From: a virus
Lineage: Duplodnaviria > Caudoviricetes
Length of the DNA stretch: 28,782 nt
IMG/VR virus record: IMGVR_UViG_3300032320_001068
Location: 1-28,782 of that record
Reading direction: 5' to 3' (one strand)
A program made the translations under genes and the position numbers. The notes beneath the pieces are model-generated. The model ran no database searches. It saw only the letters and a list, made by a program, of their open reading frames with translations, and was not told the origin of the DNA. Every line of letters starts with the position of its first letter. Within the stretch, counting starts at the first letter, position 1. Shown here one piece after another: positions 1 to 28,153 of the stretch.

Positions 1-54
1 AGAATATTGCAACTTTAATGGAAACAAAAAAACAAATTTCTGCATTCTAATTCA

Positions 55-86
55 TTTGCAGATTAAAATAATAATCCGTAATCTTG
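55..86 (+). promoter_or_regulatory. Bacteroidota primary-sigma type promoter (-33/-7)
   Basis: TTTG (55-58), 20-nt spacer, TAATCTTG (79-86; one mismatch to TAnnTTTG), intergenic upstream of the replication genes. Confidence 0.6.
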
Positions 87-116
87 CAAAACCGTTCTTA
101 AAATTTACAATTAATA

Positions 117-215
117 GTTGTGTGCCAGCAACAAATAGAAATAAAGGTGGAAACACCGATATAAACAAACCTCGACTGAGTAAATGGCACTTTACTTTTT
201 CGGGGTTTTTGTTTT
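117..215 (+). ncRNA. Structured 5' leader RNA / putative attenuator with complementary hairpin loops
   Basis: Hairpin GTTGT[GTGCCA]GCAAC (117-132); GGTG-GAAA-CACC tetraloop hairpin (146-157); long stem 163-214 with loop TGGCAC (185-190), the exact complement of GTGCCA (122-127). Confidence 0.6.
167..215 (+). terminator. Intrinsic terminator-like hairpin within the leader
   Basis: AAACCTCGA..GAGTAAA[TGGCAC]TTTACTT..TCGGGGTTT with U-rich tail TTTTTGTTTT (206-215). Confidence 0.55.
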
Positions 216-224
216 AAATACATT

Positions 225-419
225 ATGGAAGATATTACTTGGAACATTGATAACAATGACAATTTTAAAGTATCAATTAAATTAGGCTCAGGGAAAGAGA
301 TAACCATTGAGGATTCTACACCTTGTGCAATTGTTAAAGATTTAAGTTTGGAAGAACTTGAAGAAACAAACAAAAAACTATCACAAACAATTGCATTATT
401 AAGAACAGTTTTTAAATAA
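225..419 (+). CDS. Hypothetical 64-aa protein, first gene of the replication operon
   Basis: ATG after A/T-rich start region; stop 3 nt before the initiator gene; C-terminal amphipathic helix. Confidence 0.7.
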   Translation: MEDITWNIDNNDNFKVSIKLGSGKEITIEDSTPCAIVKDLSLEELEETNKKLSQTIALLRTVFK

Positions 420-422
420 ATT

Positions 423-1052
423 ATGAATTACATATCCCAAATTAATGGATTTTGGAAAATTGCTGAGGATAAACAATTTTCATCAAGTGAAATAGCGACA
501 TATTTTGCTCTATTAAATTACTGCAATAATCTTAACTGGTTAAATCCTTTTGTGTGCCATTTTGAATATGTTTGTCAAACTGCAAGTATTTCAAAAAATA
601 CTTTTTATGCTTGTATGGAAACACTCCACAATGAAAAGTTAATTGAATATACTAAGGGGATAAAAAACTCAAAAAAACCTAAAGTTTTTATTCTTAATTT
701 AGAGAATAAAACTAAGAATAAAACAGGAATAAAACTAAGAACAGAAGAGGAACAGAATAAAGAACAGAAAGGGAACTTAAATAAACTATTAAACAATGAA
801 ACTAATAAACCTATAAACAATAAAGAAATTTATAAATTTTTCTCCCACCTATCTATTTCAATTGAAGAAGTAGAAAAAATAAAAGAACTTGGATTTACAA
901 AGTTTCAAATCGATGAAGTATTGGAATCAATAGAAAACTACAAAAACAATACAAAATATAAAAGTTTGTATTTGACTGCAAAGAAATGGCTGAACAAAGA
1001 AAGAATTGAAAATCCACCTCCAACAGAAGTTAAACGCCCAATGGTATATTAA
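423..1052 (+). CDS. Phage replication initiator / replisome organiser (N-terminal winged-helix, DnaD-like or lambda O analogue)
   Basis: N-terminus MNYISQINGFW...ATYFALLNYCN..NW...ISKNTFY..L..L...KLIEY typical of wHTH replication proteins; low-complexity linker carrying iteron-like repeats; C-terminal YKSLYLTAKKW domain; directly upstream of primase-helicase. Confidence 0.75.
   Translation: MNYISQINGFWKIAEDKQFSSSEIATYFALLNYCNNLNWLNPFVCHFEYVCQTASISKNTFYACMETLHNEKLIEYTKGIKNSKKPKVFILNLENKTKNKTGIKLRTEEEQNKEQKGNLNKLLNNETNKPINNKEIYKFFSHLSISIEEVEKIKELGFTKFQIDEVLESIENYKNNTKYKSLYLTAKKWLNKERIENPPPTEVKRPMVY
704..840 (+). repeat. Iteron-like repeats plus AT-rich tract (putative replication origin inside the initiator gene)
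   Basis: GAATAAAAC at 704, 716, 727; GAACAGAA at 739, 750, 762; GAAC at 773 (alternating 12/11-nt spacing), followed by a very AT-rich stretch 777-840. Confidence 0.6.
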
Positions 1053-1054
1053 TT

Positions 1055-2890
1055 ATGACAATAGCAGTAATAGAAAAGGAATCAAAACGTGAATATCTAA
1101 TTGATATTTCCAAAGGTGGCGAAAATAAACAGACTTGCCCAGCATGTTCTCACGAACGGAAAAAGTCAAAAGATAAATGCTTTAGCTACAATGCAACTAA
1201 GGAAGTAGGAAGTTGCTCTCATTGTGGTAAGGCTTTTTACAAGAAGTTAGAGAAAGCAGAAAACAACTACCAAAAAATTGAATATAAGCGACCCATTTGG
1301 AAAAATGAAACAACACTATCTGAAAAATTAGTTAAGTGGTTTGAAGAAAGAAAGATTAGCCAAAAAACACTTTTAAAGGCAAAGATTACAGAGGGATTAG
1401 AATGGATGCCACAAACAAACGGAAACATCAACACCGTACAATTTAACTACTTTAGAGATGGTGAATTGATAAACGTAAAATATCGCACTGGCAACAAACA
1501 ATTCAAGTTGGCAAAAGATGCTGAGTTGATTTTTTATAATTTAGATGCAGTAAAAGACCAAAAAGAAATAATAATTGTTGAAGGTGAAATTGATTGCTTA
1601 ACATTAATTGAGTGCGGAATTGAAAATGTTATTAGCGTTCCTAATGGTGCTACAATTGGAAGAAACAATCTTACCTATTTAGATAATTGCATAGACCTAT
1701 TTGATGAAGATACAAGGTTTATATTGGCATTAGACAATGACCAAGCTGGAAATAGTTTAAGAGATGAATTTGCCAGAAGATTAGGGGTTGAGAATTGTTC
1801 TAAAGTAGCTTTCAAAGATTGCAAGGATGCAAATGAATGTTTGGTTAAATACGGAATGGATGGAATATTGGAAAGCATAAATAATAAAATTGAATATCCT
1901 TTAGTCGGCATATTTACCTCCACAGACTTAAACGAAGAAATAGATAATTATTACAACAACGGATTGCCACAAGGCGAAACAATAGGATTAGAAACATTTG
2001 ATGAAAACCTTAAATTTCACTTGGGGTACATCACAACGATTACAGGCATCCCAAATCACGGAAAGTCGGAGGTATTAGATTTTATTTGTGCATCTTTAAA
2101 CATTCGTGCCGGTTGGAAGTTTGGTTTATTTAGCCCTGAAAACTATCCATTAGAACTACACTTTAGCAAGTTTGCTGAGAAATTAATAGGCAAAGCATTT
2201 GATGGAAACTACAAAATGAATAAAATGGAATTGGAATTAGCAAAAGATTATTTTTCAAAAAACTTCTTCTTCATAAAACCTGAGAATGATTTTAAACTTG
2301 AAGATATTTTGCGAATGGTAAAAAGTTTAATTAGAAAGTATGGAGTAAATGCCTTTGTAATTGATGCTTGGAATAAGTTAGAACACAATGAAGATTCAAC
2401 ACACTATGTTTCAAAACAATTGGATATATTAGCAACCTTTTGTGAAAGAAATATGGTTCATTGTTTTCTTGTGGCCCATCCAACAAAGATTATGAAAGAT
2501 AAAAAAACAGGATTATTTGAAGTGCCAAACCTTTACAACATAAATGGCTCTGCAAACTTCTTTAATAAAACTCACAACGGATTAACCGTATATCGCAACT
2601 ATGATTCAAAGAAAACAGAAATTTACATACAAAAAGTAAAATTTAAACACTGGGGTCAATCAGGCACAATGTGTTCTTTAGGATGGCATTTTATTAATGG
2701 CCGATATTATACATTTATCCCCGACAACACCAATTGGATATTAGGCGAAAAGAAACAAGTAGAAGCATTTGAACTACCACCAACCCCAATAAAGCCCAAC
2801 GGAGCATTCGACACCCCAATTAATAAAAAAGATAATTGGGATTTCATCCCAAAGAATGAATTTTTAGACATAGGCAACGATGCCTTTTAA
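1055..2890 (+). CDS. Bifunctional DNA primase-helicase (T7 gp4/Twinkle-like: zinc finger, TOPRIM, SF4 helicase)
   Basis: CPAC...CSHC zinc finger; TOPRIM IIVEGEIDC and ALDNDQAG; KDANE motif; Walker A GIPNHGKS; VIDAWN; LVAHP; INGSANF. Confidence 0.93.
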   Translation: MTIAVIEKESKREYLIDISKGGENKQTCPACSHERKKSKDKCFSYNATKEVGSCSHCGKAFYKKLEKAENNYQKIEYKRPIWKNETTLSEKLVKWFEERKISQKTLLKAKITEGLEWMPQTNGNINTVQFNYFRDGELINVKYRTGNKQFKLAKDAELIFYNLDAVKDQKEIIIVEGEIDCLTLIECGIENVISVPNGATIGRNNLTYLDNCIDLFDEDTRFILALDNDQAGNSLRDEFARRLGVENCSKVAFKDCKDANECLVKYGMDGILESINNKIEYPLVGIFTSTDLNEEIDNYYNNGLPQGETIGLETFDENLKFHLGYITTITGIPNHGKSEVLDFICASLNIRAGWKFGLFSPENYPLELHFSKFAEKLIGKAFDGNYKMNKMELELAKDYFSKNFFFIKPENDFKLEDILRMVKSLIRKYGVNAFVIDAWNKLEHNEDSTHYVSKQLDILATFCERNMVHCFLVAHPTKIMKDKKTGLFEVPNLYNINGSANFFNKTHNGLTVYRNYDSKKTEIYIQKVKFKHWGQSGTMCSLGWHFINGRYYTFIPDNTNWILGEKKQVEAFELPPTPIKPNGAFDTPINKKDNWDFIPKNEFLDIGNDAF

Positions 2891-4638: not shown

Positions 4639-5931
4639 GTGAACTTATTACAAAAAGCAGTTTTCGCAATTAACAAATCAGTAAACGGTGAAAGAATACC
4701 GCTTACAACACAAAACAGAAACTTGCTTTGGCAATTAATGGGTGGATTTATTCCTTTGAATTGGAACAACTCAAGCAATGTGCAAGTAAATGAGGGATAC
4801 ATTAGAAATGTTGATGTTTACGCAATTGTAAAAAAGATTGTTGACATTTCAAAGTCAATCCCCTGGATAGTAGAAAAGCAACAAGTTAGCGGAAATTGGA
4901 AAGTGATGGAAAACACAACCATTCATGAACTAATGGATGAGCCTAATATGAGTAAGGGCTACACTTGGAACGATATTGAGGAACAAGTTTTAATCTATCT
5001 TTTGATTACTGGTAACAGCTATTTAGTAGGCAACACTCAAATAGATTCAACATTAATCGAAGAGTTGGATATTTTACCAAGTCAAGCGATTAATATTTTA
5101 AATAGAAATTCAAGTTTCTTTATTCCTGAGTTGGAATTTCAATTTAGTTACGGTTCGACATCAAGAATATACAAGAAAAGTGAAATAGAACACATCAAAT
5201 TTTTTAATCCTAATTTACAAAGGTACGATTATGGATTAAGCCCAATTGAAGTTGCAAGTAGGGTGGTTGAAGTTGGTAACCAAAGATGGATTGCAGATGC
5301 TTCAATTTTAGGAAACAAAGGAATAAGTGGATTAGTATCTGACAAATCAAACAATGCAATGACACCGGATGAGGCAGACATTGTCAACGATGAAATGAGA
5401 AACAGAATGGGTGGTGCGGAAAAGTTTGGTCAAGTTTTAGTTACCAACAAAGATTTGACTTATATTCCAATTGGTTTATCCCCAGCCGATATGCAACTAC
5501 TTGAAAAGGGAGTTGTAACAACAAGAACCTTGTGCAATGTATTGGGTTTAGATTCATCACTATTTAACGACCCAGCAAATAAGACTTACAATAACAGACT
5601 TGAAGCAGAAAAAGCAATGTACACTAATTGTATAATCCCTTTATCTGACAAAGTAGCTGAGGGATACACTCATTTTATTTGCAGAAATCATTTTCCATTG
5701 CAAAGAGTTAGAATGAGACAAGACTTCAGTAAAGTAGAATGTTTGCAAGAAAATCTAAAAGAAAAAGCGGATATTTTAGGAAGTTTCAAAGACAAAGGAA
5801 TTTACACAGCCAATGAAGTAAGGGATAAAATGGGCGAACCAAGATCAACTGACCCAAATGCAGATTTATTAATTATCAATACAACACCAATTAATAATTT
5901 GCAAAATACACAACAACAAGAACCAAAATAA
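4639..5931 (+). CDS. Portal protein (HK97 family)
   Basis: GY..NVDVYAIV..I, PN..YTW, LLITGNSY, IEHIKFFNP...YGLSPI, TYNN, IIPL, GIYTANEVR motifs; follows TerL. Confidence 0.93.
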   Translation: MNLLQKAVFAINKSVNGERIPLTTQNRNLLWQLMGGFIPLNWNNSSNVQVNEGYIRNVDVYAIVKKIVDISKSIPWIVEKQQVSGNWKVMENTTIHELMDEPNMSKGYTWNDIEEQVLIYLLITGNSYLVGNTQIDSTLIEELDILPSQAINILNRNSSFFIPELEFQFSYGSTSRIYKKSEIEHIKFFNPNLQRYDYGLSPIEVASRVVEVGNQRWIADASILGNKGISGLVSDKSNNAMTPDEADIVNDEMRNRMGGAEKFGQVLVTNKDLTYIPIGLSPADMQLLEKGVVTTRTLCNVLGLDSSLFNDPANKTYNNRLEAEKAMYTNCIIPLSDKVAEGYTHFICRNHFPLQRVRMRQDFSKVECLQENLKEKADILGSFKDKGIYTANEVRDKMGEPRSTDPNADLLIINTTPINNLQNTQQQEPK

Positions 5932-27226: not shown

Positions 27227-27422
27227 AACAACAGTAACAACAGAATTTGAAAGTCAACAAGATTTGTTTGAGCATTTAGAATATTTGCAAAAAGCTAACT
27301 TGGGATTTCAAACACAACATAATTTAATTAAAGAAATGGAATGGTTTTTTGATAGTAATCCTGAAACATCTCCATTAGAAATAATAGAATTTCTTCAAGA
27401 ATTTATAAATAAAAACTTATGA
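27219..27422 (+). CDS. Hypothetical acidic protein
   Basis: 67-aa ORF overlapping both neighbours. Confidence 0.6.
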   Translation: MNKTTVTTEFESQQDLFEHLEYLQKANLGFQTQHNLIKEMEWFFDSNPETSPLEIIEFLQEFINKNL

Positions 27423-27946
27423 AAAAATTAATCCTGGTACTACTTATAGCAACAACATTTAGTTGCAATGTCATCAAGAGTTTGCAAAAAGAAAAAAGCA
27501 AAGAGGAAACTAAAACTGAGCAAGAAATAAAAGTTGATTCAGTTGCAAAGGTCGAAATCGAGAAGGAAATAGTATCAACATTCACCACCGATACGAAAAC
27601 AGAATTTTTCGATTTAAGCGAGGTTACTATCTTTGAAGTTATGAATGATAGTGGCAAGGTTATTAATCGCACCACAACGACTAAAATCAATATAAAGGGC
27701 AATGTAATTGCCAAAGGCAAAGAGGATAAAAAAGAAACCTCCGCAGAAAGCAAAAAAATAGATTTGTCAAAAATTGACAAGTCAAAAGAAAGCAAGTCAA
27801 AAAGCGAGTTAGTAAAAGTTAAGGAAGTCAAGAAATGGTCATTGCCAACGTGGATGTGGTGGTTATTAATCATTGCAGGAGTAGTGTTTGCCCTTGTTGG
27901 AATTTGGAAGGTAAAAAAAAATAATTTTACCCAATTTTTTAAATAA
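27419..27946 (+). CDS. Putative unimolecular spanin (lipoprotein with C-terminal TM helix)
   Basis: MKKLILVLLIATTFS-C16 lipoprotein signal; C-terminal TM WMWWLLIIAGVVFALVGIW followed by KVKK. Confidence 0.7.
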   Translation: MKKLILVLLIATTFSCNVIKSLQKEKSKEETKTEQEIKVDSVAKVEIEKEIVSTFTTDTKTEFFDLSEVTIFEVMNDSGKVINRTTTTKINIKGNVIAKGKEDKKETSAESKKIDLSKIDKSKESKSKSELVKVKEVKKWSLPTWMWWLLIIAGVVFALVGIWKVKKNNFTQFFK

Positions 27947-27987
27947 ATGGCTAATCAACTTACTTATTAAGTTGGACTGCTATTTTT

Positions 27988-28012
27988 GCCTCAATTTAAT
28001 TGGGGCTTTTTT
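27988..28012 (+). terminator. Intrinsic terminator ending the late/lysis operon
   Basis: GCCTCAAT-TTA-ATTGGGGC hairpin followed by TTTTTT. Confidence 0.75.
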
Positions 28013-28028
28013 ATTTCAAAATAATTTG

Positions 28029-28036
28029 TACATTTG
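28029..28036 (+). promoter_or_regulatory. -7 promoter element between two terminators
   Basis: TACATTTG exact match to TAnnTTTG. Confidence 0.5.
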
Positions 28037-28040
28037 TGCA

Positions 28041-28101
28041 ATTAGTTTTCATAGACTGGTAATTGATTGTTCGGAAAGCCCATCTTATAGGTGGGTTTTT
28101 T
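28041..28101 (+). ncRNA. Candidate ~60-nt small RNA
   Basis: Bounded by a -7 box (28029-28036) and a terminator (28075-28101); no ORF; internal hairpin TTAGTTT[TCAT]AGACTGG. Confidence 0.4.
28075..28101 (+). terminator. Intrinsic terminator
   Basis: AAAGCCCATCT-TAT-AGGTGGGTTTT hairpin with T-run. Confidence 0.8.
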
Positions 28102-28153
28102 CGTTTCTATAAAATTAATCTATTTGAATATCAGTTAATTAAACATAGTTGTG

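Follow-up and report, generated by a model that had tools for sequence, protein, structure and literature searches.

The guanidine-IV riboswitch (mepA motif) and Gd4v have two hairpins whose loops form a pseudoknot, the 3′ hairpin being an intrinsic terminator, as set out in the available parts of their descriptions (PMC11611296, PMC9788692). In guanidine-IV, according to the part available, the kissing loop prevents assembly of the terminator and the growing stem shortens the linker, all within a narrow co-transcriptional window (PMC11611296). The leader described here lies in a 28,782-nt stretch of viral DNA (hereafter, the window, meaning the whole stretch that was analyzed), and guanidine-IV appears to be its closest mechanistic precedent. 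However, the pseudoknot bases of guanidine-IV are highly conserved, guanidine is the signal, and the genes concern guanidine export or metabolism, whereas here the pairing word varies by phage and an initiator and a primase-helicase lie downstream; the leader would thus carry a variable address and no conserved pocket.

Phage P4 immunity, with which the c4 RNA of phages P1 and P7 is grouped as the same kind of system, offers a further comparison. Its CI RNA, seqA, and seqC resemble our leader, in the role proposed for it, in that a same-strand untranslated leader governs replication genes by premature termination through short complementary sequences (PMC4825925, available text). In the same portion of that source, P4 maintains lysogeny by means of a processed CI RNA that has two flanking targets, whereas here the two sites lie within ∼120 nt, one of them is the terminator loop itself, and many carriers have no integrase, some being cultured lytic phages. 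The Rfam c4 models gave no match in the window, and no convincing second site was found elsewhere in six genomes. A likeness also exists to the rep pseudoknot of IncI-alpha/IncB plasmids (ColIb-P9 repZ) and to pT181/pIP501, in which loop pairing occurs upstream of an initiator and possibly confers specificity (PMC8383071, available text). These plasmids, in the same text, depend on a counter-transcribed antisense RNA, and repZ is controlled at the level of translation, whereas here we found no antisense promoter signal and, in the window allele, no third site at the start codon. An earlier interpretation made from the letters of the window (the sequence-only reading) had named ColIb-P9 and P4 as precedents; since neither an enriched antisense promoter nor a convincing distinct partner site was found, guanidine-IV is closer than these.

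That interpretation had also failed to recognize the leader as a named RNA family, and the Rfam search agreed: Rfam 15 returned nothing at its curated threshold for window positions 1-1000, nine loci, 20 loci, or five cultured-phage loci. A blastn search of the leader against cultured phages gave only 17 short chance matches, a scan for the exact pattern of the window words plus hairpin 2 gave five matches in unrelated contexts, and a pattern scan of metagenomes returned 20 stretches, eight of them chance and none with a new loop word. No description of the leader was found in the open full-text literature, a scope outside which most subscription papers lie. It is not described in the available part of a survey of 224 motifs (PMC5737381) or in that of a catalogue of 10,006 phage RNAs (PMC10690425), for which four of six listed supplements held no match and the rest may include members listed as unnamed terminators. 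Overall, the leader is likely uncatalogued, probably working like the expression platform of guanidine-IV but lacking a defining feature of each known system.

The window is a single virus record with its long ORFs on the + strand, which encode an initiator-like protein, a Toprim primase-helicase, a terminase, a portal, a capsid protein, and tail proteins; it is a partial genome of a tailed freshwater phage that probably infects Bacteroidota. The relative G002 is complete, measuring 37.8 kb and carrying terminal repeats; judged by it, ∼9 kb that would precede the leader are probably absent from the window. The best cultured-phage matches to the primase-helicase were Flavobacterium phages, Cellulophaga phages, and vB_RanS_PJN03, with 37-39% identity to the proteins of the cultured Flavobacterium and Cellulophaga phages. 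These matches, together with promoters that fit the Bacteroidota consensus (TTTG / TAnnTTTG), point to a Bacteroidota host. The features of the leader and of the genes that follow it are:

55..86, + strand: Bacteroidota-type promoter, with the −33 TTTG at 55-58, a 20-nt spacer, and the −7 TAATCTTG at 79-86
117..132, + strand: hairpin 1, with a 5-bp stem and the kissing loop GTGCCA at 122-127 (−3.2 kcal/mol)
141..162, + strand: hairpin 2 in the linker, GGTG-GAAA-CACC at 146-157 plus a predicted AUA/UAU extension; an accessory of the subfamily
170..205, + strand: hairpin 3, a predicted intrinsic terminator with the kissing loop TGGCAC at 185-190, extendable to 163-215
206..215, + strand: U-tract of the predicted terminator; a T-rich tract is kept in 7/7 close alleles
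225..419, + strand: first ORF, 64 aa, of no family and not conserved across the RNA family
423..1052, + strand: replication initiator-like protein, 209 aa, with mosaic N- and C-terminal parts (phrog_19658, E 1.5e-7)
1055..2890, + strand: Toprim primase-helicase, 611 aa (phrog_239, E 2e-87; Pfam Toprim)

The promoter at 55-86, the three hairpins, and the first ATG after the leader at 225, all proposed in the sequence-only reading, held in every coordinate when checked against the sequence and the minimum free energy (MFE) fold. The predicted transcription start lies, we assume, near 92-93. The MFE fold of 85-230 contained all three hairpins (−30.7 kcal/mol, z −2.0), and 8 of 200 shuffles were as good. 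The stability of hairpin 3, whose core is directly followed by UUUUUGUUUU, was −12.7 kcal/mol for the core and −17.7 kcal/mol in the extended form, and in six of seven alleles hairpin 3 folded better on the + strand than on the − strand. A simple terminator scan of the window leader called 0 sites and missed hairpin 3, likely because its stem has an internal loop; termination in the window leader would be expected at ∼210. The GC-rich character claimed for these elements applies to the loops and stem bases but not to the leader as a whole (33% versus 31% GC in the window). In one run of a freshwater metatranscriptome, sampled for a small share, five contigs were found, and they left window positions 1-800 uncovered.

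Three further candidates in this region found no support. The 33-aa ORF from the ATG at 184, considered as a leader peptide and rejected, is 2-5 aa long or absent in the six other alleles; a second occurrence of 10 nt of hairpin 1, at 550-559, falls within the initiator gene and outside any loop and was taken as chance; and a Rop-like role for the 64-aa ORF was unsupported, as the ORF has no family or look-alike and is not conserved after the terminator. The initiator itself follows the terminator within 60 nt in 20 of the 56 members of the family defined below.

Close relatives were sought with two leader patterns as well as with the initiator and the primase-helicase as queries, which yielded seven alleles of the window design, given here as loop 1/loop 3 together with an eighth allele of another layout:

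GTGCCA/TGGCAC: window and L003
CGGCAT/ATGCCG: L001
GGGCAT/ATGCCC: L005
GGCCAT/ATGGCC: L012
GTAGGAG/CTCCTAC: L006
GTCGGAG/CTCCGAC: L008
GTGGAAG/CTTCCAC: L030
TTCCGCC/GGCGGAA: L007 (eighth allele, another layout)

In each of the seven close alleles the two loops are complementary; across them the stem of hairpin 1 is kept and its loop changed, and the loop of hairpin 2 is GAAA or GCAA in all seven, with a different stem in L001. The claim that loop 1 (GTGCCA) is the reverse complement of loop 3 (TGGCAC) is confirmed, the decisive evidence being covariation in relatives. In a 7 × 7 matrix of duplexes, each row had its own pair as the strongest; own pairs ranged from −7.7 to −10.7 kcal/mol, and the best cross pair reached −6.9 kcal/mol. 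Comparison of the window with L038 and L024 gave 92-99% identity over 216-2890 and 96% in the promoter versus 56% in hairpin 3, and within this 2.9-kb block the only 50-nt segments with <80% identity were those spanning 106-230. Other relatives differ outside the leader too, and the genomes are mosaic.

A coupling between leader and initiator was tried and rejected: a single type of initiator was seen alongside six different leader alleles, and a single allele alongside two types of initiator. Separately, the N-terminal domain of the initiator (window 423-1052 compared with relatives) occurs in at least four swapped types in phages with 96-99% identical primase-helicases. A second leader design was seen in the close relatives L007, L023, and L047, ∼200-490 nt before the initiator; it has the same promoter, no linker hairpin, and a CCGA-GTAA-TCGG tetraloop hairpin within the terminator loop, adjoining the kissing word.

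For the family-wide test, loci were gathered around three initiator alignments, and 208 of them (193 from the alignments and 15 added by hand) went to the detectors; three genome hits to the C-terminal part only and most loci from the first initiator alignment were left out. Most of the 77 new loci from that first alignment showed no such leader, and only five entered the test. A detector of loop complementarity called 49 of 564 terminators upstream of the initiator versus 3 of 575 downstream. Because selection on the answer was to be avoided, units were then defined by position only, as a −7 box followed by a terminator at most 1,200 nt upstream of the initiator, with near-duplicates removed (n = 80). 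Pairing with the own 5′ segment reached at least 6 nt in 56 and at least 7 nt in 48 of the 80 units, compared with 6.3 and 2.1% of mismatched pairs, and the highest count in 10,000 permutations was 9. Control terminators paired in 2/26 and 3/49 cases, which was not significant. When the 11 units from hand-added loci were removed, 47/69 (≥6 nt) and 42/69 (≥7 nt) remained.

The 56 members carry 53 different words, and no loop-centered column exceeds 57%; one word, GGTAGGA, is common to many distinct records. Clean loop-loop cases number 41/56, the ∼15 others not being clean, and the loop-to-loop spacing has a median of 53 nt (interquartile range 50-62). In 53/56 members, a set that had been selected on a looser box, a strict −7 box precedes the hairpin 1 word by at most 60 nt. 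The effective linker has a median of 15 nt in the family and is 16-19 nt in the window subfamily if the GNRA hairpin is counted as a compact insert. The conserved core of the family comprises the promoter, hairpin 1, an A-rich linker, a terminator with a complementary loop, and the U-tract. The GNRA hairpin that the sequence-only reading had placed between the loops is present in the window but does not define the family, being found by MFE in 6 of 56 members, all of the window subfamily.

We also counted pairs in a subfamily of 16 sequences, 14 chosen by flanking motifs and two added from the position-only units. Overall, 98.4% of 430 cells were paired and 0 of 500 shuffles were as high, a shuffle count that is not a probability; the kiss helix was 96.9% paired, with 30 both-side changes, 0 one-side changes, and no G-U, and because the sequences are related these counts overstate the number of independent events. 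The terminator stem tolerated G-U, and slid controls were 28-46% paired. Loop-loop covariation, which the sequence-only reading had called for, was seen both here and in the seven close alleles. For two given 6-nt loops, the prior of an exact match is ∼6e-5 to 2e-4. The word alone is not rare, GTGCCA occurring in the window at chance frequency (10 occurrences versus 7.3 expected), which would suit a plain leaky terminator whose 6-nt match arose by chance; covariation in the seven close alleles, the permutations, and the pair counts argue against such a terminator, and with the position-only test already contradicting it we regard it as extremely improbable. Together, the comparisons lend strong support to the structure of a real RNA element of a widespread phage family.

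Some observations on individual loci of the family may be added. L353 has two leaders with different words (5318-5358 and just upstream of 3001), the second of which precedes an ORF resembling, by eye, an HNH endonuclease. The terminator stems of L302, L303, L309, L316, L318, L337, L353, and L364 contain an AGTA/GAA internal loop, which resembles a loop-E or sarcin-ricin motif. No such leader was found within 3 kb upstream of the initiator homologue in L276-L278, L280-L282, L284, L285, L287, or L292; these loci lie on long contigs of named bacterial genomes and are probably prophages.

The cultured carriers are Lillamyvirus, Muminvirus, Cellulophaga phi10:1 and phi19:1, and Polaribacter Danklef and Freya, in which the leader occupies an unannotated or mis-annotated gap before the replication module. 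Three words occur among the phages of Flavobacterium sp. LMO6/LMO9:

GTGAGAC: 28/46 records, identical to lillamy9-5
GTGAGAAG: morran, 2 records
GTGGAAC: seen in mumin6-1 and snusmum9-1, which belong to a group of 16 records

Two of these three natural alleles differ by matched changes in both loops. In the available text of its authors' report, the mumin group is lytic only (PMC7077304), whereas Danklef and Freya encode an integrase (PMC8776804, available text), the latter also being present in our own check. In uncultured records with a completeness of at least 90%, tyrosine integrases turned up in 0/18 clear carriers, 0/3 doubtful or unclassified records, and 2/9 non-carriers; two incomplete carriers have one. 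Therefore, with a lytic-only mumin group, an integrase in Danklef and Freya, and these integrase counts, the leader does not seem to be tied to lysogeny. A link between leader and lifestyle was tested and was not significant (Fisher p 0.095, 0/19 versus 2/9). An S24-type repressor was found in 0/30 near-complete records. Small phages of Flavobacteriia mostly lack a recognizable repressor, and we found no description in the literature of how their initiator and primase-helicase are controlled, for which the leader is a concrete candidate.

We propose, with a probability of roughly 0.58, that the conserved leader is a kissing-loop antiterminator that gates transcription of the replication operon. 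The cis-acting attenuator suggested by the sequence-only reading is thereby retained as the best interpretation, given that the loops covary, that dozens of phages have the unit between a conserved promoter box and a replication operon, and that Rfam returned no match. Host RNA polymerase would start near 93, and hairpin 1 would fold first; loop 3 (185-190) would then exit the polymerase before the 3′ arm of the terminator and pair with loop 1. Tethered by a linker of ∼15 unpaired bases, the kiss would hinder zipping of the terminator stem, so that some polymerases would read through into the 64-aa ORF, the initiator, and the primase-helicase. Where the terminator prevails, the outcome would be release of a ∼120-nt leader RNA. 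In nested folds of the nascent window RNA (equilibrium, pseudoknot-free, and with an assumed 12-nt footprint), the loop-loop helix was the MFE structure at 3′ ends 204-214 and the terminator only from 216. In the window, the kiss (−8.5 kcal/mol) and the terminator core (−12.7 kcal/mol) are of similar size. Steric exclusion between the kiss and the terminator was not borne out, as reach was shorter than need in only 4/41 members; linker length did not track stem length (rho −0.06), and the geometry permits the kiss and the full terminator together in most members.

This geometry bears on an alternative in which the kiss forms with or after termination and either makes the released ∼120-nt RNA more compact or shields it, or else reinforces termination; the functional product would be the small RNA (as decoy, scaffold, or primer) and read-through mere leakiness. 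Besides the reachable kiss with full terminator in most members, the element has its own promoter and terminator, and L006 and L008 gave weak CopA-like matches (34 bits against a gathering cut-off of 60, with no CopA match for the window). The element lies, however, in sense orientation at the head of replication operons, as the upstream and downstream counts of the detector indicate, and neither conserved sequence for a fixed outside partner nor a loop-centered column above 57% was found, and we consider this alternative unlikely.

The identity of the downstream genes and the variability of the words bear on a guanidine-IV type of riboswitch that senses a metabolite or an ion. The layout of two hairpins, pseudoknot, and terminator is the same (PMC9788692, available text), some unpaired bases are kept in subfamilies, and AGUA/GAA-like internal loops occur; however, there is no Rfam match, 53 words in 56 members leave no family-wide conserved bases at the kiss, and replication genes follow, making such a riboswitch highly improbable.

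Classical antisense control, in which a counter-transcript or an RNA encoded elsewhere binds the loops as in pT181, pIP501, ColIb-P9, or P4, would find its hallmark in variable complementary loops before replication genes (PMC8383071 and PMC4825925, available text). Yet a motif scan found antisense −7 boxes within 150 nt downstream in 7/56 members versus 24/161 background windows, five of six genomes had no intergenic second copy of either word in a loop (the one weak candidate being in G005), and the terminator stem tolerates G-U on the + strand; antisense control is in our judgment very unlikely. Translational control like that of ColIb-P9 repZ, in which the terminator loop would have two possible partners, loop 1 and a third copy of the word located at the start codon, we regard as quite unlikely. 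A third copy does lie just before the ATG in L194, L208, L311, and L365, but copies of at least 5 nt occur in only 4/80 units, one of which, L030, counts only since its word overlaps a start-codon sequence common to other alleles, and the window allele is without one.

For the antiterminator itself, the leading guess at the tipping signal, which we offer tentatively, is that terminated leaders occupy loop 1 of new transcripts in trans. The broader form of this idea, that of self-addressed RNA feedback across Bacteroidota phages with one short transcript as both switch and regulator, is possible but doubtful. In cis, the kiss would let polymerase through to the replication genes; in trans, the stable terminator loop of a released leader would bind loop 1 of new transcripts and force termination. 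The 6-9-nt word would then be a swappable address through which a phage keeps its replication in check and silences any co-infecting phage that shares the word. Such feedback would need neither a repressor protein nor an antisense gene, and because there is no antisense gene, the terminated leader would be the obvious reader of the address. The hypervariable island with 53 words in 56 members and near-orthogonal pairing agrees with feedback in trans, as does L353, one phage with two leaders and two different words. On the other hand, stems diverge as much as loops, GGTAGGA is common to many distinct records, 28/46 cultured records share one word, and the two loops of a released leader might kiss each other and leave it inert. 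For a helix acting only in cis, compensatory changes could let the words drift, and recombination could move them.

If the antiterminator reading is true, kissing-loop antitermination would no longer be confined to one class of ligand-binding riboswitch but would also have a form that needs no ligand and is addressed by sequence. Should the words prove orthogonal in trans, Bacteroidota genetics would gain from the family a ready-made set of transcription switches. The three natural alleles in the cultured LMO6/LMO9 phages make the antiterminator idea directly testable.

Elsewhere in the window, further Bacteroidota-type promoter boxes lie at 2969, 4608, 5963, and 28175, before the terminase, portal, head, and small-gene blocks; no kissing leader was seen by eye after these four boxes. 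At 28030-28105 (+ strand), a second promoter-like box precedes a 68-nt unit of two hairpins that ends like a terminator and whose fold (−22.8 kcal/mol, z −5.2) was matched by 0 of 200 shuffles; the 5′ arm of the unit resembles the complement of a start-codon region, and the unit is possibly a separate small RNA. Finally, a terminator-like hairpin with a T run lies at 27985-28015 (+ strand), 3′ of a 175-aa ORF (27419-27946).
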